From NCBI RefSeq assembly GCF_030296755.1, contig NZ_AP027741.1, positions 1,829,475 to 1,861,474 of the forward strand: a DNA stretch of 32,000 bases, read 5' to 3'. The position numbers and the translations under genes were made by a program. Below the pieces are notes generated by a model. The model was not told the DNA's origin and did not search any database. It saw only the letters and a list, made by a program, of their open reading frames with translations. Below, in pieces: positions 6,781 to 21,567 of the stretch. Position 1 is the first letter of the stretch, and each line of letters begins with the position of its first letter. The DNA is from Methylophaga marina (GTDB lineage Bacteria; Pseudomonadota; Gammaproteobacteria; Nitrosococcales; Methylophagaceae).

Positions 6781-6839
6781 GCTGACATGCTCCTAATTAA
6801 TTTAATTTATGAGTTATTACGTTGAAAATACGCTCGCAG

Positions 6840-7843: not shown

Positions 7844-8830
7844 ATGAAAAAATTAATCAATGCTGTGGACAGTGTGCTTGAGGAGAGTTTGAGTGGGTTT
7901 GCTAGAGCACACAGCGATATTATTCAATTCAATCAACAACCCCACTTTGTTAGTCGAAAAAATAAGTCTGAAAATAAAGTCGCTCTGATTTCTGGTGGTG
8001 GTGCTGGTCATGAACCATTACATACTGGATTGGTGGGAAAAGGCATGCTAGATGCGGCTTGTCCTGGACAGGTGTTTACATCACCTACTCCTGACCAAAT
8101 GATGATGGCTGCTCAGACTGTTGAAGCGGGTGCTGGCGTGTTGTTTATTGTTAAAAATTATGCCGGTGATGTGATGAATTTTGAAATTGCGGCCGAAATG
8201 TTGGATTGCCCACATGAAACTGTACTGGTGAATGATGACGTATCCTTACCCAAAGATCACAGTACTGGCCGTCGAGGTGTCGCAGGGACATTAATTGTAG
8301 AAAAAATCGTCGGTGCGGCTGCAGAAGCAGGCGCTGATCTAGCCACTTGTAAAAAGCTGGGTGACAAAGTCGTCAATGCCACAGCGTCGATGGGATTGGC
8401 TTTAACGAGTTGTACGGTACCTGCCTTGGGTCAACCCACTTTTGATATTACAGATAATGAAGTCGAAATGGGGGTTGGGATTCATGGTGAGCGCGGTCGT
8501 GAAATCATGAACTTAACGACTGCTGATGAGTTAGTTCAGATACTGGCTAAAGCGATTGATGAGGATTTGCAGCCGGCGAAAGGACAGCGCGTGTTACTAC
8601 ATGTGAATGGCTTTGGGGCGACACCATTAATGGAGCTGTACCTAGTCTATGATATCGCTGCTCATTTTTTTGAGGAGCGTGGTATAGAAATTGTGCGTTC
8701 ACTGGTAGGCAACTACACCACTTCACTAGATATGGCGGGTTGCTCAATTACGCTAACATTGATGGATGACGAAATGCTGCAGTATTGGGATGCACCTGTA
8801 CATACGGCGGCATTACGTTGGGGGATTTAG
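7844..8830 (+). CDS. dhaK: Dihydroxyacetone kinase, DhaK (dihydroxyacetone-binding) subunit
   Basis: 328 aa with SGGGAGHEP, NYAGDVMNF and GVGIHGERG (hemiaminal His) motifs. It has an AGGAAG RBS. Confidence 0.9.
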   Translation: MKKLINAVDSVLEESLSGFARAHSDIIQFNQQPHFVSRKNKSENKVALISGGGAGHEPLHTGLVGKGMLDAACPGQVFTSPTPDQMMMAAQTVEAGAGVLFIVKNYAGDVMNFEIAAEMLDCPHETVLVNDDVSLPKDHSTGRRGVAGTLIVEKIVGAAAEAGADLATCKKLGDKVVNATASMGLALTSCTVPALGQPTFDITDNEVEMGVGIHGERGREIMNLTTADELVQILAKAIDEDLQPAKGQRVLLHVNGFGATPLMELYLVYDIAAHFFEERGIEIVRSLVGNYTTSLDMAGCSITLTLMDDEMLQYWDAPVHTAALRWGI

Positions 8831-9486
8831 TTTTTACTTAACTCATCAGCAATGACGCAAAGAATAAGTTGTGATGTACGAGCGCCTGCATCGATGTGAC
8901 CGCGGGCGCGTTCACCCAAAAATGAGGCTCTTCCTTTTGTGGCCAGCATGTCTTTAGTTGATTGCATACCTTGTGTAGCGGCTGTTTTCATATTACTTAG
9001 AACCGTCGCTTTGTCTGCATTTTGTTCAGCATCACTTTGCAATGATTGCATCACTGGAATCAGGGTATCCAGCATGGTTTTTTCACCGATATCGGCCTTT
9101 CCTCGCGCTTTTATTGACTCAACACCCGCTGAGTAAATAGTGGAAACGGCTGTCAGATCCATATCTGGATCTTTAGCGGCTTTCCCCATACTCACAAACA
9201 TGGAACCCAGCAATGAGCCTGATGCGCCACCCATAGTAGACATTAGAGTCATACCCATTTTCATGAATGCTGCTGACCAATCAAGTTGAATCAGTTCATC
9301 ATTTTGCTTAGTCAAGGCCTCAAGTCCACGTAATAGGTTGGTGACATGGTCACCATCACCAATGGCTCGATCCAACGCAGAAATCTCCGCTTCATTGTTA
9401 ATTATTTCAGATTGAATTGCAGCGAGAAGAGTGGGGAGAAAAGTGGTATCAGTCATGTTTAGGCCAGTGAGTTTATCGCAGATCAT
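8827..9486 (-). CDS. dhaL: Dihydroxyacetone kinase, DhaL (nucleotide-binding) subunit
   Basis: Contains the LDRAIGDGDH Mg/ADP-binding motif and an all-helical DhaL-sized body. The start is uncertain (9486, or the ATG at 9456 giving MTDTTF...). Its stop overlaps the dhaK stop on the opposite strand. Confidence 0.8.
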   Translation of the reverse strand: MICDKLTGLNMTDTTFLPTLLAAIQSEIINNEAEISALDRAIGDGDHVTNLLRGLEALTKQNDELIQLDWSAAFMKMGMTLMSTMGGASGSLLGSMFVSMGKAAKDPDMDLTAVSTIYSAGVESIKARGKADIGEKTMLDTLIPVMQSLQSDAEQNADKATVLSNMKTAATQGMQSTKDMLATKGRASFLGERARGHIDAGARTSQLILCVIADELSKN

Positions 9487-9531: not shown

Positions 9532-9981
9532 TTATGTTTGCTTCGGAGGTAACGGGTGGATGGGGGGAATGATATCGGCGTTCAATAATAAGCGCCCATA
9601 CACCACACCTCGCAGTGTAATCATTTTGTCGGCGATCATGTTCAGGCGATTAGCTGGGCCTTGAACCAGAATGACTGACAGTGTGTTGGTATGGGTTAAA
9701 TTGACATTGAGGTTACTGATGACCTCATCAATGTATTCATATTGCAGATCATGAAGACGTTTTTGCAGGCCGGGTACGGAATGATTGTAAACCAGATTAA
9801 CGGTGCCGGTCATGACAGTATCACCCTGCTGGGCGCGATGTTCATTGATTTGTAAATTTATCATGTCACAAATAGCCTGAGAGCGACTTTCAAACCCCCG
9901 TTTACTGACCATTTCATCTAAACCTTCCAGCAGACTTTCAGGTAATGAGATACTGATACGACTGACTTTTTCTTTGCTCAT
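9532..9981 (-). CDS. NikR-family (ribbon-helix-helix + ACT-like domain) transcriptional regulator lacking the canonical Ni-binding residues
   Basis: The N-terminus RISISLPESLLEGLDEMVSKRGFESRSQAICDMI is an RHH motif. The C-terminal domain is collinear with E. coli NikR, but positions equivalent to H76/H87/H89/C95 read Y/N/N/T. Confidence 0.75.
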   Translation of the reverse strand: MSKEKVSRISISLPESLLEGLDEMVSKRGFESRSQAICDMINLQINEHRAQQGDTVMTGTVNLVYNHSVPGLQKRLHDLQYEYIDEVISNLNVNLTHTNTLSVILVQGPANRLNMIADKMITLRGVVYGRLLLNADIIPPIHPLPPKQT

Positions 9982-10066
9982 GCGAACTCCTGAAGTTTGT
10001 CATCATTATTGTCTGAATGGACAAGACTATCACCCAGGCTAAAACCGGGGTGATGTCACCTGATTT

Positions 10067-11436
10067 TTAGAACAAGTGGCTATAGCGCTCCACTTCCCAT
10101 GCACTAACCACAGTGTGGTATTCATTCCACTCAGCTTGTTTGTAACGAATAAATTCGTTTCTCAGCTCACTACCCAGGACTTCTTCCATAAACGGATCAG
10201 CAGCAAATGCCTGAATGGCTTCGTCCAGCGTTCTGGGTAAGAATTGAATGCCTAATTCCTCACGTTCTGCTTCAGTTAATTCATACAGATTACGTTCCTG
10301 AGGTTTACCAGGATCTAGGCCTTCTTTGATACCTTCTAGACCAGCTGCGAGCACCAGAGCGGCTGCAAGGTATGGATTGACAGCGCCATCGGCATTGCGT
10401 GATTCACAGCGACCACCACCCATCGGCACCCGAACTGAGTTGGTACGGTTATTCGAGCCAAACGAGTTAAATACCGGTGCCCAAGTGAAGTAAGGCATAT
10501 CACCCTGGCGAACCAGTCGTTTGTATGAGTTTACGGTTGGCGCAAACACCGCACATAAAGCGGGCCCGTGTTTTAATACACCGGCAATGAACTGATAGCC
10601 TAATTTGGTTAAGCCGAGGCCATGCTCATCTTCTTCAGGTTTGCACTGGAAAAGGTTAGCTCCAGTCTCCAAATCATAAAGCGACATATTAAAGTGAGCG
10701 CCTGTTCCAGTTTTATTTGAGAAGGGTTTAGGCATGAATGTCGCTAACAAATCTTCTTGTTTCGCATATTCTTTTGCCATCATCTTCAAGAAAGTAAAGC
10801 GATCGCAGCTGGTAATGGCATCAGCGTAGTTAAAGTCGAACTCGAACTGTGCATTGGCATCTTCATGATCGAAGGAGTAAAGCCCCCAACCCAGATCATC
10901 AATGCTAGTGGCCATTTTGTCTAACCAGCTAAAATTACTTAAAAAAGCGCGAGTGTCATAACATGGTTTTTTCAATTTATCATCTGGATCAGGCACAGAC
11001 AGGGTGCCATCTTCATTTTTTTCACCAGGTAAACTTCTGCTTCAATACCCAGATTCATGCCATAACCGAGCTCTTTTGCTTGTTCCAGTACAGATTTGAG
11101 TAAAACACGAGTACTGAGCATATACGGTTTTTTGTATAGGGTATTATCGGCTGGCATCCAGGCAATTTCTGGTTGCCATGGTAGTTGAATAATATGATCT
11201 AAATCTGGCACAGAGGCGATTTCATCATCATTTGGCTGCTGTCCCAAACCATCGACAGCATAACCGGTATAAAGCTCAGAGCCATGTGCCATATGATGTA
11301 AATGCGAGAGCGGGACAACTTTACCTTTCGGTACGCCATGGATATCCACATACGTACCCATGCAGTATTTCACGCCTTTGCTTTTTAATTCTTCTTGTAT
11401 TTTTCTGATTTCATCATCAGTTTTGATGTTAATCAT
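10067..11436 (-). pseudogene. Glutamine synthetase-family ligase (GlnA-like / gamma-glutamyl-amine synthetase-like), frame broken by a 1-nt deletion in an A7/T7 run (11016-11022)
   Basis: ORFs 10972..11436 (GS beta-grasp N-domain: [19 protein letters not shown]) and 10067..10996 (GS catalytic domain: [24 protein letters not shown]...R.E.R) are consecutive. Reading the run as A8 gives a continuous ...[32 protein letters not shown]... protein of about 456 aa. Confidence 0.85.
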
Positions 11437-11462: not shown

Positions 11463-12227
11463 TTATAAGAGAGACTGGTGGTAGCTTTGATCAAGCGGCG
11501 GTTGTTCCTTAATTGCTCTCATCACCAGTTGAGATAAGTCTTCACACATCCATGAAAAAAGTGCTTCACCCTCAGCTTTTGTTGCAGTGGAGGGGTTACC
11601 TGTCACGCCATTTAAACTGGTGCGATTGACAGGATGGCTGAACACACAGCCATCAGTTCGGTCCGGATCATCTGCGTCAACTAATTTATCTTCACGCACT
11701 AACTCCGGGTGTAAGGCCATCATCAAAGCGGTTTCGGCTTGATTGGCATGCCAGTCTTCAGCATCGTCATGATGGGCTTTGCGAACACGTTCCGAAATTT
11801 GAGCGGTGTGAACCAAGCCGATCATCAAATCATCATGACGTGCTCTGAGCATTTCCAAGGCGCAACGAAGTGGAGCGGCATTGGTCACATGGCCATTGAT
11901 CAGTAACAGGCGTTTAATACCGGAAGAGGCTACCCAGTCACCGATATCGGAAATCATATCAATCAATGTTTTAGGATTGAGTGCCATCGTGCCTGGCCAT
12001 CTTTTAGAATGACCGATAGAACAACCATAGGGCTGGGTGGGTAATAAAATAACCGGTGTCTGCTTTGCTACTTCTTTGCATAAGGTGTCAGCAATAGCGG
12101 AATCCATACCACAGCCCATATGTGGTCCATGCTGTTCGGTGGCGCCTACAGGCAGTAAAGCGGTATCAACACCGTTTTTTACAGCCTCAGCTACTTCTTC
12201 CCATGTCATTTGTGCTAATTCATACAT
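11463..12227 (-). CDS. Creatininase-family (creatinine amidohydrolase-like) metal-dependent amidohydrolase
   Basis: 254 aa with the VGATEQHGPH...D and INGHVTN motifs characteristic of the creatininase family. Its ATG overlaps the stop of the upstream ABC ATPase (TAATG). Confidence 0.75.
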   Translation of the reverse strand: MYELAQMTWEEVAEAVKNGVDTALLPVGATEQHGPHMGCGMDSAIADTLCKEVAKQTPVILLPTQPYGCSIGHSKRWPGTMALNPKTLIDMISDIGDWVASSGIKRLLLINGHVTNAAPLRCALEMLRARHDDLMIGLVHTAQISERVRKAHHDDAEDWHANQAETALMMALHPELVREDKLVDADDPDRTDGCVFSHPVNRTSLNGVTGNPSTATKAEGEALFSWMCEDLSQLVMRAIKEQPPLDQSYHQSLL

Positions 12228-13135
12228 TAGAAAACGCTCCCAACTTCATCATTTACTGGCACCATGCGGACAAGGTTCAGGTGATCTTCATCATCATCCT
12301 GCTTGGGAGGGTGAATCAGTTCTTCCAGTCGTTTTTTAGTGGCGATAAATTCTGGCGATAAAAATTGATCTGGATTTCTAGGTTGAGGTACCGGTACTTC
12401 AATCACTTCTTGTACTTCGCCGGGATTGGCTTTTAGCACCAGAATGCGATCAGCTAGATAAATGGCTTCATCCAGATCGTGGGTAATGAAAAACACTGTC
12501 ACATCAATGTTTTTCCATATCTCCATCAGATAAGCCTGCATTTTGCTGCGAGTTTGAGCATCAAGGGCCCCAAATGGCTCATCCATCAACAGCACTTTAG
12601 GTTTATTGGCTAAAGCTCTGGCAATGGCAACACGTTGCTTCATACCTCCTGAGAGTTGATGGGGGTAGCTGTTTTCAAAACGTGCTAAACCAATTAAGTC
12701 TATCCACTGTCTAGCTTCAGCTTCTGCTGTGCCTTTGTCATAGCCAGATTCACGTAGACCAAACATCACGTTCTGCTTGACGGTTAGCCATGGAAATAAG
12801 GTATAACCTTGGAATACCATGCCGCGTTCTGGTCCCGGTTTATTGACGACTTTGCCATCCAGTTTGACTTCACCTTCGGTGGCTTGCTCAAGGCCAGCCA
12901 GAATGCGAATCAGGGTGGATTTACCACAGCCTGATGGCCCAATCACGCAAACAAACTCACGTTTATGAATGCTCAGATTGATATCTTTTAACGCGGTCAC
13001 CGTGCCATGTCGGCTTTGGAAGGTTTTACTTAACCCTGTCACTTCCATGGTGACTGGACGTTTTTTGATGCGGGCAAAACGGTCTCGAACAGCATCTGAC
13101 TGAACGCGATAATCGGGTAAGGTTGGTTCACTCAT
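12227..13135 (-). CDS. ABC transporter ATP-binding protein (NitT/TauT nitrate/sulfonate/taurine family)
   Basis: Has Walker [10 protein letters not shown], the signature LSGGMKQR and Walker [12 protein letters not shown]. The FQ...LFPW motif is typical of TauB/SsuB-like ATPases. Confidence 0.9.
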
Positions 13136-13144
13136 CTCGTGCTC

Positions 13145-14092
13145 CTAATTCGCTTTCTGCCAAGGGAAAAGACGACGTCCAAACCAGGCGAGTAATAAAT
13201 CAATGGTCAGGCCTAAAATGCCGATCATCATGATGGCGGCGAAGACGTTGTCGAAGTTTTTGTAGCGTGCTTGTTGGGTGATAAACCAGGTAATGCCTGA
13301 GCTGGTGCCAATCAATTCCGCCACAATCAAATAGGTCCAGGCCCAGCCAAGCAGGATGCGGGTGTCGCGGTATAAATCCGGCAAAATGCCAGGTAATACG
13401 ATGCGAAATAGCATGGAGCGATTATTTGCGCCCAATGTTTGACCCGCTTCCAGTAAGGCTGGGTCCAGTTTTCGGGTGGTATTGGCGACGATCAAAACCT
13501 GCTGGAAAAAGGTACCGATAAAAATAATCGCAATTTTTGGCGCTTGATAAATCCCAAGAATCGCCACCGCCAATGCACCAAATGCTGGCGCAGGTAGGTA
13601 GCGGAAGAACTCGATAAAGGGTTCAAATAATCGAGAGAAAAAGTCATAGGTCCCAGCCAAGACGCCAAGGGGAATGCCTATGATGGATGACAAAAGGAAT
13701 CCATAAAAAATAACCTGAATACTGCTCCATAGACTTTCGTGTAACCACAGCTCACTGCTACGTTTGGGTTCGGTGGTAAACGACGTATAGAAAGCGGTGA
13801 CAACTTCATGTGGCGCGGGCAAATAAATAGGGTTGGCCGGTATGCCTTCTGGTATGGCCTTGCCTGCTGCGGAAGCTTTGTCGAGTTCAGCATTAAAAAC
13901 CTCTTTATCAACTAGCATTCCTTCACGAAAGTAACTCACAGAGCCGGGTAAAGTGACTTCTACTTCCGGGTGCCAAATAAATGGGACATAGCTGACCAGA
14001 CACCAAAGAAGAATGGGTAATACAAAACTGCTGATAGTCACTAATTGTCGACTACGCGGCTCAAGCGGTTTATTAACTGAAAAGAGTGACAT
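13145..14092 (-). CDS. ABC transporter permease (NitT/TauT family)
   Basis: 315-aa multi-pass hydrophobic protein with an EAA-like loop (LEAGQTLGANNRSMLFRIVLPGILP). It sits between the SBP and ATPase genes. Confidence 0.85.
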   Translation of the reverse strand: MSLFSVNKPLEPRSRQLVTISSFVLPILLWCLVSYVPFIWHPEVEVTLPGSVSYFREGMLVDKEVFNAELDKASAAGKAIPEGIPANPIYLPAPHEVVTAFYTSFTTEPKRSSELWLHESLWSSIQVIFYGFLLSSIIGIPLGVLAGTYDFFSRLFEPFIEFFRYLPAPAFGALAVAILGIYQAPKIAIIFIGTFFQQVLIVANTTRKLDPALLEAGQTLGANNRSMLFRIVLPGILPDLYRDTRILLGWAWTYLIVAELIGTSSGITWFITQQARYKNFDNVFAAIMMIGILGLTIDLLLAWFGRRLFPWQKAN

Positions 14093-14166
14093 AAACAGTA
14101 CCTTTGCTATTTTCAGACAACACGATCCCCTGCCTGGTCATGACATAAAATTTCAGGAAGAGGGGA

Positions 14167-14191
14167 AGGCACCGGTTGATGACCGGTGCCT
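14167..14191 (-). other. Intercistronic stem-loop between the SBP and permease genes
   Basis: 9-bp stem AGGCACCGG/CCGGTGCCT with a 7-nt loop, 10 nt after the SBP stop and followed by a C/T-rich tract. This is typical of a partial terminator or stabiliser that sets SBP excess in ABC operons. Confidence 0.5.
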
Positions 14192-14200
14192 ATTAGTCTT

Positions 14201-15166
14201 TTACTCGCCTAATAAAAGAGAAGGATCGATGTAATTATCGACAGTCTGTTTATCGGCATAGACCTTATTGTCGACATTGAATTGATCCGCAATTTCTGTT
14301 GAACCATAAAGCGAACCAAAGCCGTCTGCTTTTTTCATAAAGCCTTGAGCTTCTTCTTTAGTCAAAATCTTAGTACCATCGATAAAGGCTTTATACGCCT
14401 CGGGTTCAATACCAACGCGAGCAGCCATGATGCTGATGGCATCATCACGTGTTTTTGGATCATTGAGGTAATCAACCGCCATATACCAAGCATCGATAAC
14501 TTTTTTCCATTCATCGCGGTGAGTTGCCAAGCTTGATGGAGAAACAGCTAACACATCATAAATAAGACCAGGTTCATCGGCACTGGTGTAAATAGGTTTC
14601 GATGCTGGCACTAAATCTAATGCCTGACCTGAGTTTGGTTGCCAAGCCCCAATAGCTTCGACCTGGCCTGATGCCAAGACTTGTGGTGTTTCATTTGTGG
14701 GCACATTCACTAGTTCAACATCACTTTCAGTCATACCGGCTTTTTCTAAACCGTTCAGCAATAATAAATGATCGACAAAGCCGAGTTCGACGCCAACTTT
14801 TTTGCCTTTCAGATCGGTAATGGAGTTAATGCTGGGCGCACCCACAATCATATCGTTACCGTTACTGTAGTCATTAATCAGGATCATGACATTTTGGGCA
14901 CCTGTGGCACCTGTGACTAGAGCGTCACCATTAGTCATCGTCACCGCATCTAACTGACCCGCAGCGAAGGCGTCCATGCTAGCGACGTAATCAAACCATT
15001 CAAACTGCACGTCCACACCAACTTTATCGAACATTTTCTTTTCGATGGCGATTTCCCAAGCCACCCAACCTGGCCAATCGCTATAGCCAATTTTTAGTGG
15101 TTCTGCACTGGCATTAGCTGAAAGTAATAAACCTGCGAAAGCAGAAAGAAATAGTCTTTTTTTCAT
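14201..15166 (-). CDS. ABC transporter periplasmic substrate-binding protein (NMT1/TauA-like)
   Basis: Signal peptide [21 protein letters not shown], then [11 protein letters not shown]...DAVTMTNGD, typical of NitT/TauT-family SBPs. Confidence 0.85.
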
Positions 15167-15183: not shown

Positions 15184-15211
15184 GTATTACGATTTACCAA
15201 TTTGGTAATAC
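15184..15211 (-). promoter_or_regulatory. 28-bp palindromic operator candidate GTATTA-N16-TAATAC (NikR-operator geometry)
   Basis: Half-sites lie at 15184-15189 and 15206-15211. An inner 7+1+7 palindrome TTACCAAtTTGGTAA lies at 15194-15208. The site sits 18-45 nt upstream of the SBP ATG and immediately downstream of the sigma-54 element. Confidence 0.5.
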
Positions 15212-15218
15212 TCAGTTT

Positions 15219-15234
15219 TGCAGTAACTGTGCCA
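15219..15234 (-). promoter_or_regulatory. Sigma-54 (RpoN) -24/-12 promoter element TGGCAC-N5-CTGCA
   Basis: The minus strand reads cTGGCACagttaCTGCAa, against the consensus TGGCAC-N5-TTGCA. The GG-to-GC spacing is exact. The predicted start, near 15208, would give a leader of about 40 nt for the ABC operon. Confidence 0.6.
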
Positions 15235-15610: not shown

Positions 15611-16810
15611 TTACCAGCTGATAAAACCACCAACAGATAATACATCAACTTCATCATCAGATGATTGAAGGTGATATTCAGTTTCCATTTGTGAGTATTC
15701 AGCAACCAATTTCAGGTTAGCTGTTACATCATGATAGATACCGATAGTAGCCATTGCGTTGCTGTCTAAGTCAGCTGCACCACCACCTACTGCATTTGTG
15801 CGGTCTCTATCTAGTGTTGATTCACCATAAGATGCAGCAACAAAAGTTTGACCACCGAAACGGTAACCTAACTGTGCGTAGTAACCATCACCGTCACGTG
15901 CACTACCATTTGTGTTGAAAGCGCCAGTGCCTAGACCGTTAACGCCTTGACCTTTGCTGTCATAGTAAGTAGCAACTGCTTCAAAACCACCCAGGATTAA
16001 TTGACCACCGACAGTGTATGCATCAGAAGTTTCGCTACCTGTAGCATTGCTGTAACGAACATCTTGAGTCATACCATCTAACCACAGTTTCATAGAACCG
16101 CCGTCAAATGCTGTAGCGTAGCTTAAAGATGCTTCATAACGAGCGTCTTTTTCAAAGCCAGTACCAGTCGCTTGTAAAAAGTCATCAGAATCCGCAACAG
16201 CAATCGCTGCTTTGAAACCATTCATATCAGGAGTGGTGTAACGGATTTGTGAGCGCCAGTTAGCGTACTCATAACCCCAACCGATACGACCTAAAGAAGT
16301 TGTTCCAGTGTTTTGATCGCCAGCTGCTGTGACGCCAGTCGCACCTACACCGTATAAAGTTTGGTCTAACAGGATGTTGTTAGCTGCATAAAGGCCTAGA
16401 CCTTTACCTAACATGATTTGACCAAATGAACCGTCAACAGTTGCAAATGCTTCACGTTGTTCCATAGCGTCGTTACCGCCTTGGTTTTCGTTGAAGTAGC
16501 TGCCATTGTTAGTTGATGGTGAGATAGAAACACGTGCTGCCACTTTAAGGCCATTGATTTCAGGCATTGCCACGTTAAAACCAAAGAATGTAGGTAACAG
16601 ACCGTTAGCTACTTGTTGGTTGTTTTGATCGAAACCACCGTTAGCGCTGTCTTGGTCGCTAGCGATGAAGAACTGGTTGATGTTACCGTCAACGCTGAAT
16701 TCGTAGCCGTTTTCACCACCGACAACGATTGTCGCGTTAGCTGCACCAGCAGCTGTTAATGCTGCTGCACCGACTAAAGAAGCCAGTGTTGATTTTTTTA
16801 ATAATTTCAT
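15611..16810 (-). CDS. Outer-membrane porin (general Gram-negative porin family)
   Basis: Has signal peptide MKLLKKSTLASLVGAAALTAAGAANA, alternating beta-strand patterns rich in G/Y/N/A/T, and a C-terminal aromatic residue (...VGGFISW). Confidence 0.8.
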   Translation of the reverse strand: MKLLKKSTLASLVGAAALTAAGAANATIVVGGENGYEFSVDGNINQFFIASDQDSANGGFDQNNQQVANGLLPTFFGFNVAMPEINGLKVAARVSISPSTNNGSYFNENQGGNDAMEQREAFATVDGSFGQIMLGKGLGLYAANNILLDQTLYGVGATGVTAAGDQNTGTTSLGRIGWGYEYANWRSQIRYTTPDMNGFKAAIAVADSDDFLQATGTGFEKDARYEASLSYATAFDGGSMKLWLDGMTQDVRYSNATGSETSDAYTVGGQLILGGFEAVATYYDSKGQGVNGLGTGAFNTNGSARDGDGYYAQLGYRFGGQTFVAASYGESTLDRDRTNAVGGGAADLDSNAMATIGIYHDVTANLKLVAEYSQMETEYHLQSSDDEVDVLSVGGFISW

Positions 16811-18466: not shown

Positions 18467-21400
18467 ATGCTATCTAAAGTCGTTGCTTTTTCGGTACGCT
18501 TTCGTGGCGTGGTGGTCGCTCTGGCTTCGATGTTACTTATTTATGGTGTCTATAAGTTATCTAACTCCAGCTTAGATATTTTTCCAGAGTTCGCCCCTAA
18601 ACAGGTCATCATTCAAACAGAAGCCCAAGGCCTAACGGCTGAGCAAGTAGAAGTCTTGGTGACGCAGCCTTTAGAAAACGCGCTGGGTGGTCTAGTGGGG
18701 ATGAAATCAATCCGTTCTCAGTCTATACCCAGTCTTTCGGTGTTGACGCTAACCTTTTACGACAATACGGATATTTATCTGGACAGGCAGTTAGTATCTG
18801 AGCGCTTATTGGGGTTAAAAGAAGTCTTACCGGCTGGCGTGGGCGCTCCATTGATGGTGCCATTAGAATCCTCATCCGGCACGATTATGACCATAGGACT
18901 GACGTCTGATTCGCAAGACTTGATGACATTGCGCTCGCTTGTAGACTGGACATTGGCTCCCAGGTTGCTGAGCGTCGATGGTGTTGCAGATATTAATGTG
19001 TTTGGCGGTCATGAGCGTCAATTACAAATTCAGATAAAACCAGACAAATTAGCGAAATATGGTATTTCGATCGATGAAGTGACGACAGTCGCGCAGCAAG
19101 CTACCGGCATTATGGGCACCGGTTTTGTTGAAAACCAGAATCAACGGATGACCATTCAAGTCAGCGGACAACCGCTCAATGCCACACAGCTAGCCAAAGT
19201 TGTTGTTCGAAAAGAAGGCAATACTGTTCTGCGACTGGGTGATATTGCGTCTGTAAAAGAAGCACCTGCACCAACGATTGGTGGTGCAGCTATTGGTGGT
19301 AAACCTGCCGTTGTGTTGATGGTAATTGGTCAATACAAAGCGAATACACTGGCAGTAACCGAAGGCATTGAGGCTGCTTTAGATGAGTTCAAAGATGGTT
19401 TCGGTGCTGAAGGCATTACCTTGCATGATGATTTATTCCGACCTGCAAACTATATCCAGACATCACTCGTCAATATCCAAGAACATTTGATGGTCGGTGG
19501 TGGACTGGTCATGCTGGTGCTGATTTTATTTTTATTTAATATCCGTACCGCTGTGATCTCCATGACAGCTATCCCTCTCTCTTTGTTTGCAGCCATGATC
19601 GTCTTGCTGGAATTTGGCATCAATATAAACATTATGGTCCTGGGTGGTCTGGCCATCGCACTCGGGGAAGTGGTCGATGATGCCATCATTGATACCGAAA
19701 ATATTTTTCGTCGATTAAGGCAAAATGCCCTGCTAGCAGCACCTAAGCCCACCATGGAAGTGGTGTATGAAGCGTCAATGGAAGTAAGAAGTTCAGTGGT
19801 TTATGCCAGCTTTATTGTGATGCTGGTCTTTGTGCCATTATTGACATTAAGTGGGGTTGCCGGTCGTATGTTTGAGCCATTGGGTGAAGCTTATATTCTG
19901 GCCATTTTTGCCTCACTAGCCGTGGCATTGACGGTCACGCCAGCGCTTTGTCATATCTTGCTGACCCGAGCAGGAGATGTCAGTCATGACGAGCCACCCC
20001 TGATTCGAATGATTAAACCTATTTATGGTCGTGTGCTATCTGCGATAAGCCACTTTCCAAGACTAACCTTGCTTGGTGTACTGGGTTTCTGCGTAGCGGG
20101 CTTGTCGATATTACCGTTCTTAGGAGGCAGCTTTTTACCGGAACTTCGTGAAGGTCATTACATTATTCATACCGCGAGCGTACCGGGTACATCTATAGAA
20201 GAGTCGTTGCGAATAGGTGGTCGTATAGAGCAGCGGGTGGCAGAAATACCCGGTGTACGTTCAACCTCACAATGGGCGGGTAGAGCAGAACGTGGTGCTG
20301 ATACGTTTGGCACACACTATAGTGAATATGAAGTGGATCTTGAGCCGATGGATGGGCCCTCTCAGCAGCGGGTACTGGATGAAATTCGTGAAATATTAGA
20401 AGCCTTTCCCGGCGTGAACTCGGAAGTGAATACGTTTTTAACAGAACGTATTGATGAAACTATTTCCGGTTATACCTCACCTATTGTCGTCAATATCTAT
20501 GGCAAGAACCTGGATGCGTTGGACAAGACTGCACAAGAAGTGGCAGAAGTTATGAGGGATATTGATGGCGCCGCTGATGTTCAGCTTCGAGCCCCTCCCG
20601 GCGAACCACAGCTTGAAGTGCGGCTGGATTTAGACAAGCTGGCTTATTGGGGCTTGCGTCCTGCAGAAGTGATGCAGGCAGTGAGAACGGGGTTTGATGG
20701 GGCTGTTGTAGGCCAAGTCTATGAAGGCAATCAGGTGTTTGATGTGGTGGTTGTGTTACCTGAAGAACTGCGTAAACAACCTCAGCAGTTAAGAGCCTTA
20801 CCCATACAGACGCCAGAAGGTGTGATGTTACGCTTACAGGACATTGCGGTGATTCAGCAGGTCTCGGGACGCCATATGATTCAGCATCGTGGGTCACAGC
20901 GTTTGCAAACGGTCACGGCTAATGTCACTGACCGTGATCTGAGTTCTTTTTTGCTGAGCTGAAACAACGTGTACATGATGAAGTCGCTTTCACCGCAGAT
21001 ATCTATCCTGAGTTTACTGGTGCGGCAGTGGCACAAGCGCAGTCTCGTGAGGATTTGATTGTGCATTCCACCTTGGCAGGCTTAGCTGTTTTGTTATTGC
21101 TTTACGTGGCCTTACAAAGCTTTCGCAATATGATATTGGTATTGATTAATTTACCGTTTTCTCTAGTCGGCGGTGTGCTGGCCGTGGTTTTAACCAACGG
21201 CGTGTTGTCGATTGGTTCATTAGTCGGTTTCGTGACGCTATTTGGTATCACATTGCGTAATGCCATTATGCTGGTGTCACATTACCAATACATGGTGACA
21301 GAAGAGGGCGCGGCCTGGAATCTGGATACTGCCATCCGAGGGGCACAAGAACGCTTACCATCAATACTCATTACGGCTTTGGTCACAGCGCTCGCCATGT

Positions 21401-21567
21401 TACCCATAGCGATAAACTCGGATAGCCCTGGCCGTGAGATTATGGGGCCGATGGCCAGTATTATTATCGGTGGTTTGATTTCTTCCACGGTGTTAAATCT
21501 ATTGGTGTTGCCAAGTGTCATGCTTCGCTACGGACGATTCAAAACCATTAGAGAAGCGCAGCTCTGA
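18467..21567 (+). pseudogene. CzcA/CusA-family RND efflux permease, frame broken by a 1-nt deletion in a T6 run (20947-20952)
   Basis: ORFs 18467..20962 and 21028..21567 are the N- and C-terminal parts of one 12-TM RND pump of about 1033 aa (LGEVVDDAIIDTENIF in TM4, C-terminal GFVTLFGITLRNAIMLVSHY). Reading the run as T7 gives ...DRDLSSFFAELKQRVHDEVAFTADIYPEFTGAAVAQAQSREDLIVHS.... Confidence 0.85.

Follow-up and report, generated by a model that had tools for sequence, protein, structure and literature searches.

NikR proteins bind Ni(II) at a high-affinity square-planar site composed of His87, His89, Cys95 and His76' (Escherichia coli numbering). In E. coli, nikR occupies the 3'-terminal position in the operon of the ABC importer that it represses (PMC2667541), and published NikR boxes have the forms GTGTTAC-N13/14-GTAACAC and GTATGAT-N13/14-ATCATAC (PMC545781). 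A 2026 survey inferred nickel sensing for the dominant NikR-family cluster, which accounts for 86.5% of sequences (bioRxiv 10.64898/2026.05.01.721428). For guanidine, a 2025 review names riboswitches as the only known receptors, notes the absence of any known regulatory protein that binds guanidine, and explicitly asks for such proteins (PMC12186494). Our full-text literature searches found no description of a NikR together with creatininase, glutamine synthetase (GS), gmaS or urea/guanidine carboxylase, nor of a NikR-like paralogue of the kind described here; in PMC10781810, PMC2667541 and PMC10927577, NikR appears in unrelated contexts only. Here we examine a NikR-like regulator encoded in the window, that is, the whole 32,000-nucleotide stretch of Methylophaga marina DNA that was analysed. 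The regulator gene and the parts of it that bear on its function are:

9532..9981, minus strand: NikR-like regulator gene, 149 aa, with an RHH domain, an ACT-like NikR_C domain and a C-terminal tail (open reading frame, Pfam, NCBIfam, PDB alignments, AlphaFold2 model)
9682..9741, minus strand: codons of the former high-affinity Ni site (Y81, 9739-9741; N92, 9706-9708; N94, 9700-9702; T100, 9682-9684)
9547..9573, minus strand: C-terminal tail IIPPIHPLP, residues 137-145, conserved and specific to the Cys-less branch defined below

The original prediction gave this protein an RHH N-terminus and a NikR-type C-terminal domain, and Pfam, NCBIfam and PDB alignments agree on that architecture. RHH_1 (PF01402) covers residues 8-45 (E 7.7e-8), and NikR_C (PF08753) covers residues 59-132 at 81.1 bits against a cut-off of 22. 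When all PDB chains were searched with phmmer, the regulator matched NikR proteins only, the top matches being Pyrococcus horikoshii NikR 2bj1 (E 5.7e-32) and E. coli NikR 1q5v (E 5.2e-16). The same alignments place R8, S10 and S12 of the regulator's beta-strand on the NikR strand and have zero gaps over the metal-binding domain of either protein. Each regulator residue carries the number of its E. coli NikR counterpart plus 5, and H76, H87, H89 and C95 correspond to Y81, N92, N94 and T100, within a stretch that reads VYNH...LQYEYIDEVISNLNVNLTHTNTLSV. Both this stretch and the gap-free alignment to E. coli NikR are exactly as first claimed, and alignments to solved NikRs confirm the replacement of the four ligands by Y, N, N and T.

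The AlphaFold2 monomer model of the regulator has a mean pLDDT of 87.4, and NikR chains make up the top 50 of its PDB matches. Because the C-domain of the model superposes on NikR C-domains at 0.7-2 A with a TM of about 0.9, the sequence alignment and the fold-level alignment agree; the structure-based alignment puts no His or Cys at any of the four ligand positions. A misalignment that hides His or Cys ligands is ruled out by the gapless match to three solved NikRs and by the superposition of the fold. The predicted loss of canonical nickel binding follows from these verified alignments and the fold superposition, by which the square-planar Ni site should be unable to form in the regulator. 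The protein passes the NF003381 'NikR' equivalog model at 119.5 against a cut-off of 105, which explains why databases name such proteins NikR. Given the missing Ni site, that name is probably an over-annotation. We class the regulator as a variant of the NikR kind and not itself a NikR, because the defining Ni site is lost.

The substitutions recur in relatives. Among the 120 closest homologues (at least 65% identity), whose hosts include Methylophaga, Neptunomonas, Thalassolituus, Psychromonas, Celerinatantimonas, Marinomonas and Exilibacterium and which, where a source gives a name, are called NikR, the three ligand columns hold N or S, N (H in five) and T or I, and the H76 column holds Y, F or H; the Ni-site substitutions are thus conserved rather than random. 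Against a Methylophaga relative (L003), the regulator gene has a dN of 0.006, a dS of 1.32 and a dN/dS of 0.005. Two other Methylophaga loci encode exactly the same protein (100% identity), with 94-99% identity in the neighbouring proteins. These values indicate strong purifying selection on the gene. A decaying pseudogene or chance open reading frame is ruled out by the dN/dS of 0.005 and by conservation across genera. No second NikR_C gene was found in the M. marina genome, which rules out the regulator being a spare copy beside a canonical NikR. Across an even sample of 401 Gammaproteobacteria, a NikR-family match occurs in 48 genomes and is of the Cys-less type in about 10. Two genomes (G118, G091) carry a second, distant NikR-family match of 29-34% identity besides the Cys-less gene, and in a third (G261) the second match is a 66%-identical fragment of the same Cys-less type at a contig end. 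Two other Methylophaga genomes have no NikR-family match, and the distribution is patchy.

A search of 1.8 billion cluster representatives returned 1266 family members, of which the best 150 were taken and 137 entered a tree built by a quick maximum-likelihood search, not a finished one. One clade in this tree (SH-aLRT 99) comprises 66 of the 137 rows; none of them has Cys95, and most lack one to four of the His. The canonical H/H/H/C rows, also 66 of 137, all fall outside it, and the sub-clade that holds the window's regulator has a support of 98. The tree thereby places the regulator in a well-supported Cys-less branch of the NikR family. A query from one sub-branch alone retrieved over 2,500 protein clusters, and the Cys-less branch is both large and undescribed in the literature that we found. 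The residues of the former ligand pocket differ by sub-branch, reading HYNNT, HHHHT or ERHQR, and the kind of operon is the same in each. The ERHQR sub-branch is from soil and Verrucomicrobia; the other distant one is HHHHT/HHHHS. A feature common to the branch is the C-terminal tail, with the consensus (I/L)(I/L)PPxHPLP, which is absent in 94% of canonical representatives. Across 86 sequences of this tail, P139 never varies and H142 is conserved in at least 90%; the tail has low pLDDT in the monomer model.

The regulator gene is the last of six same-strand genes, which encode in order a binding protein, permease, ATPase, creatininase-family protein, GS-family ligase and the regulator. The other genes and the control elements of this operon are:

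15219..15234, minus strand: sigma-54 promoter TGGCAC-N5-CTGCA, with exact -24/-12 spacing
15184..15211, strandless: operator dyad GTATTAC-N14-GTAATAC (equivalent to GTATTA-N16-TAATAC), predicted site of the NikR-like tetramer
14201-15166, minus strand: NMT1-type binding protein, part of the NitT/TauT-type ABC importer at 12227..15166
13145-14092, minus strand: ABC importer permease (Pfam, NCBIfam)
12227-13135, minus strand: ABC importer ATPase (Pfam, NCBIfam)
11463..12227, minus strand: creatininase-family metal amidohydrolase (PF02633, 249.6 bits)
10067..11436, minus strand: GmaS-like type III glutamine-synthetase-family ligase (best PDB match 9qur)
10005..10061, minus strand: part of the 85-nt gap between the GS-like and regulator genes, with a hairpin at 10048-10061 and a weak sigma-70-like site at 10033-10005 (consensus scan only)

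The creatininase-like protein scores below the NCBIfam equivalog cut-off for creatininase proper and matches PDB creatininases at E values of about 1e-24. The nearest solved relatives of the GmaS-like ligase are glutamate--methylamine ligases, 9qur (E 2.5e-112) and 7cql. In this assembly its gene is interrupted, one nucleotide being deleted from the A run at 11016-11022 (A7 here, A8 in four relatives), in a break region that spans 10972-11040. Two other genes in the window are also broken: that of an AcrB-type RND pump at 18467-21567, which yields pieces of 831 aa and 179 aa, and an aconitase-family gene at 1473-2636 that starts at profile position 86. All three breaks look like homopolymer assembly errors, a reading based on the genome being a single contig. 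The sigma-70-like site and hairpin in the 85-nt gap may, on weak evidence, provide a basal promoter for the regulator. The binding protein of the window shares 68-77% identity with its counterparts in clusters that contain the guanidine carboxylase pathway as well, and only 33% with a paralogue under riboswitch control in the same genome. In Methylophaga loci, a porin gene (15611-16810 here; 67-82% identity between species) sits directly upstream of the operon, and the porin could serve uptake of the importer's substrate. On the other side, a Dak1 gene (plus strand) and a Dak2 gene (minus strand) for dihydroxyacetone kinase converge within 7844-9486 and overlap at their stops; they adjoin genes for a HAD phosphatase and the RuMP cycle, including two hexulose-phosphate synthase copies, SIS and transaldolase.

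The dyad starts 7 nt after the end of the -12 element. An rpoN gene is present in the M. marina genome, and no NtrC-type upstream activator site was identified for the promoter. In geometry the dyad equals the published NikR boxes, so that an inverted-repeat operator of the NikR type is present here and its occupancy by the regulator is predicted. The arrangement recurs: in all 21 loci with a readable region upstream of the binding-protein gene, TGGCAY-N5-xTGCW is followed by the dyad within 5-8 nt. Other arrangements and phyla, including the ERHQR and HHHHT sub-branches, carry the dyad before the binding-protein gene, cgdA or the regulator gene. The palindrome at 15184-15211 that the original prediction had singled out thus appears to be a conserved operator-like element right after a sigma-54 promoter in all loci examined. 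In the 3.1-Mb M. marina genome the perfect dyad occurs once, at 15184-15211, and near-matches with up to two mismatches number 27 against 30 for a control pattern; a wider dyad regulon in this organism is ruled out, since near-matches are no commoner than the control. With a single perfect dyad, near-matches at control level and no other NikR_C gene, the predicted regulon in M. marina consists of the regulator's own operon alone. One other locus (L074) has two more dyads, at positions 6838 and 7010, in the interval that separates the carboxylase gene from a divergent gene for a second NMT1-type binding protein, which shows that the regulon can include additional importer components.

The neighbourhood of Cys-less genes points to guanidine. 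A NitT/TauT-type ABC importer adjoins the regulator gene in all 40+ sampled loci, from three sub-branches and several phyla. In the 24 genome loci with the regulator, the importer is always on the same strand and directly or nearly directly upstream, mostly together with the creatininase and GS genes. That pair and the genes for CgdAB (two DUF1989 proteins), the carboxylase (in these clusters a urea/guanidine carboxylase) and allophanate hydrolase, with a guanidine-II riboswitch, are usual in the sampled loci and not universal. The fullest order, seen in about 10 close matches among the 401 Gammaproteobacteria either whole or in subsets, is importer-creatininase-GS-NikR-like-CgdA-CgdB-carboxylase-allophanate hydrolase. 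The distant ERHQR and HHHHT sub-branches have the same neighbours as the sub-branch of the window. Four loci (L031, L084, L085, L026) have no GS or creatininase gene. As for whether the GS-like/creatininase neighbourhood accompanies ligand loss, the two genes are usual beside Cys-less genes, are missing in some loci and belong to a larger guanidine-utilisation regulon. By Rfam, a guanidine-II riboswitch lies directly before the carboxylase gene in seven loci of the Cys-less branch; this marks the pathway as guanidine-responsive, and the placement matches that in described operons (PMC12186494).

Creatininase-family hydrolase and GmaS-like ligase genes travel together in guanidine clusters of both Gammaproteobacteria and Verrucomicrobia (L071, L073, L074, L075, L029), and the pair lies outside the described guanidine pathway. 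Two metagenome contigs of Verrucomicrobiales (L029/L030) carry an extended cluster that runs from the importer and creatininase genes to the NikR-like gene, with genes for a Rieske oxygenase, a GS-like protein, an SDR, a polysaccharide-deacetylase-family protein, an FGE-sulfatase-family protein and a xylose-isomerase-like TIM-barrel protein inserted; CgdAB, carboxylase and allophanate hydrolase follow the NikR-like gene.

In the clade of the window, all nine Oceanospirillales-type loci have a divergent cgdAB-carboxylase operon with both a guanidine-I and a guanidine-II riboswitch, and the sigma-54 promoter and dyad are found on the adjacent importer-creatininase-GS-regulator operon of the same nine loci. 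For this clade, the idea that the NikR-like protein just takes the place of the guanidine-I riboswitch is an oversimplification, as the two are present together at one locus. The Methylophaga locus is a short form, made up of the importer, the two enzymes and the regulator, with the cgdAB-carboxylase half missing. The carboxylase operon of M. marina is complete and lies 1.5 Mb from the window (G000:C1:306000-322500, L040), in the order guanidine-I riboswitch (89.7 bits), binding protein, permease, ATPase, two DUF1989 genes, guanidine-II riboswitch and carboxylase. No riboswitch was found on the window operon, a tRNA being the only element within the window to reach the Rfam threshold.

Taken together, the data lead us to propose that the regulator represses a nitrogen-starvation operon, its own gene included, independently of nickel, with guanidine or a related compound as the leading candidate effector, a reading to which we assign a probability of about 0.6. 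A tetramer would bind the dyad through two RHH dimers spaced about two helical turns apart. As the dyad overlaps the start site, the bound regulator would block sigma-54 RNA polymerase there, and would repress the importer/enzyme operon including itself, since its gene is the last of that operon. The sigma-54 promoter would supply control by nitrogen starvation, and a small nitrogen compound, not nickel, would relieve (or impose) repression. That the protein has probably been re-purposed, as the original prediction held, and now serves the adjacent operon draws strong support in comparative genomics from the purifying selection, the invariant importer linkage and the conserved operator.

The candidate effector is guanidine or a close guanidino/ureido compound that would be handled by the importer and the two enzymes, and an effector of this guanidine-type class is the most parsimonious guess for the branch as a whole. 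Because the pocket columns vary (HYNNT, HHHHT, ERHQR), a single effector at the former Ni site is not supported, and the sensing site of the regulator may lie elsewhere in the protein. Moreover, a second guanidine sensor is not obviously needed where guanidine-I and guanidine-II riboswitches are already on the cgdAB-carboxylase operon, as in the nine loci above and, in trans, in M. marina. The effector in the clade of the window may be something other than guanidine, such as a substrate of the creatininase-like/GmaS-like pair, and the 33% identity between the two M. marina binding proteins is compatible with a different substrate.

A bolder version of the proposal, which we regard as possible and hold only tentatively, is that the Cys-less branch forms the first family of protein transcription factors to sense guanidine or a methylated or cyclic guanidino compound. 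The planar cation would sit at the tetramer interface, in what was once the nickel pocket (Tyr/Phe, Glu, Asn, Asn and Thr in this clade), perhaps closed by the PPxHP tail, and the creatininase-like/GmaS-like pair would be an undescribed route of guanidino compounds into nitrogen assimilation.

Among the alternatives, the one that fares best, though we consider it unlikely, is that the effector is a nitrogen-status or pathway metabolite (glutamine, an ammonium-derived signal, allophanate/carboxyguanidine or a product of the creatininase/GmaS-like enzymes) that acts as a co-repressor and exerts feedback on import. This logic is that of Ni-NikR on nikABCDE, in that canonical NikR binds DNA only when liganded and shuts off an importer. 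Amino acids are common ligands of ACT-like domains, the regulator gene follows a GS-family gene in most loci, and guanidine sensing for the catabolic genes is already performed by riboswitches in the clade of the window. The sigma-54 promoter, however, already provides a reading of nitrogen status, and the same operator also stands before catabolic cgdAB genes in other arrangements. Furthermore, the four loci named above have neither the GS nor the creatininase gene, so that no product of these two enzymes can serve as the signal in every locus.

Less probable still is that the protein remains a metal sensor through other ligands (H67, H97, the tail His142, Tyr/Glu) and switches between nickel-dependent hydrolysis of urea or guanidine (urease, GdmH-type) and the nickel-independent ATP/biotin-dependent carboxylase. 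Such regulation would be physiologically sensible, and a NikR box before a nickel-independent isoenzyme has been predicted earlier (hydAB, PMC545781). The M. marina genome holds two urease loci, a large sister sub-branch retains the four His with only Cys changed to Thr or Ser, and the tail His is conserved through the whole branch. Against this, three of the four ligands here are Asn, Asn and Thr, which are poor Ni ligands; across the branch the columns take R, Q, L, V, I and S, a pattern that no conserved metal site shows; H67 and H97 vary as well; and no nickel transporter or nickel enzyme was seen beside any sampled branch member, so that the genomic link to nickel that marks NikR is missing. 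Finally, a regulator with no small-molecule effector, acting as a constitutive autoregulatory damper or controlled by a partner such as the GS-like enzyme docking on the PPxHP tail, as Bacillus GS controls TnrA/GlnR by docking, would suit the variable pocket, the conserved, branch-specific tail of predicted disorder and the adjoining GS-like gene in most loci, but is very improbable given that loci which lack a GS-like gene (L031, L084, L085) conserve the tail just as well, that the whole ACT-like domain is very strongly conserved, and that the NikR family offers no precedent.

A repressor that responds to a small nitrogen compound therefore remains our preferred reading of this locus, and it has several implications. 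NikR is treated as uniformly nickel-specific, and a large branch that lacks the Ni site and controls a non-metal regulon would mean that many annotations need correction; if true, the branch also shows the re-use of a metalloregulator scaffold. The regulator and its dyad constitute a directly testable candidate guanidine sensor and might serve as a biosensor part. Uncharacterised chemistry linked to the guanidine pathway is suggested by the conserved creatininase-like and GmaS-like genes. M. marina is itself a natural experiment, because its NikR-like operon and its riboswitch-controlled carboxylase operon are physically apart.

Of the known systems, P. horikoshii NikR (2bj1/2bj3/2bj7/2bj9; NF003381 type) is the best match to the regulator in both sequence and structure, with 42-43% identity in structural alignment. 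The two proteins have the RHH plus ACT-like architecture in common and align without gaps over both domains; the archaeal protein has an H/H/H/C Ni site and serves nickel homeostasis, whereas the regulator has Y/N/N/T, an extra conserved tail and a non-metal context. E. coli NikR has the same fold but only 27-30% identity in structural alignment, and its Ni ligands are absent from the regulator. The E. coli nik operator, GTATGA-N16-TCATAC, has the same 6-N16-6 (7-N14-7) geometry as the dyad of the window and differs by one base per half-site. The position of the regulator gene at the operon 3' end is likewise that of E. coli, but the importer here is of the NitT/TauT type, not peptide/nickel, and the promoter is of the sigma-54 type. 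From the guanidine-I (ykkC) carboxylase operons of Raoultella and Klebsiella (PMC12186494), the importer, CgdAB, guanidine-II riboswitch, carboxylase and allophanate hydrolase are also found in loci of the Cys-less branch, and the creatininase-like and GmaS-like genes are extra relative to those operons. Many Cys-less loci carry a sigma-54 promoter and a NikR box where the described operons have the guanidine-I riboswitch. The described guanidine operons use an RNA switch, the window-type system a predicted protein-DNA switch, and in the window's own clade the two types of control stand side by side on different operons.
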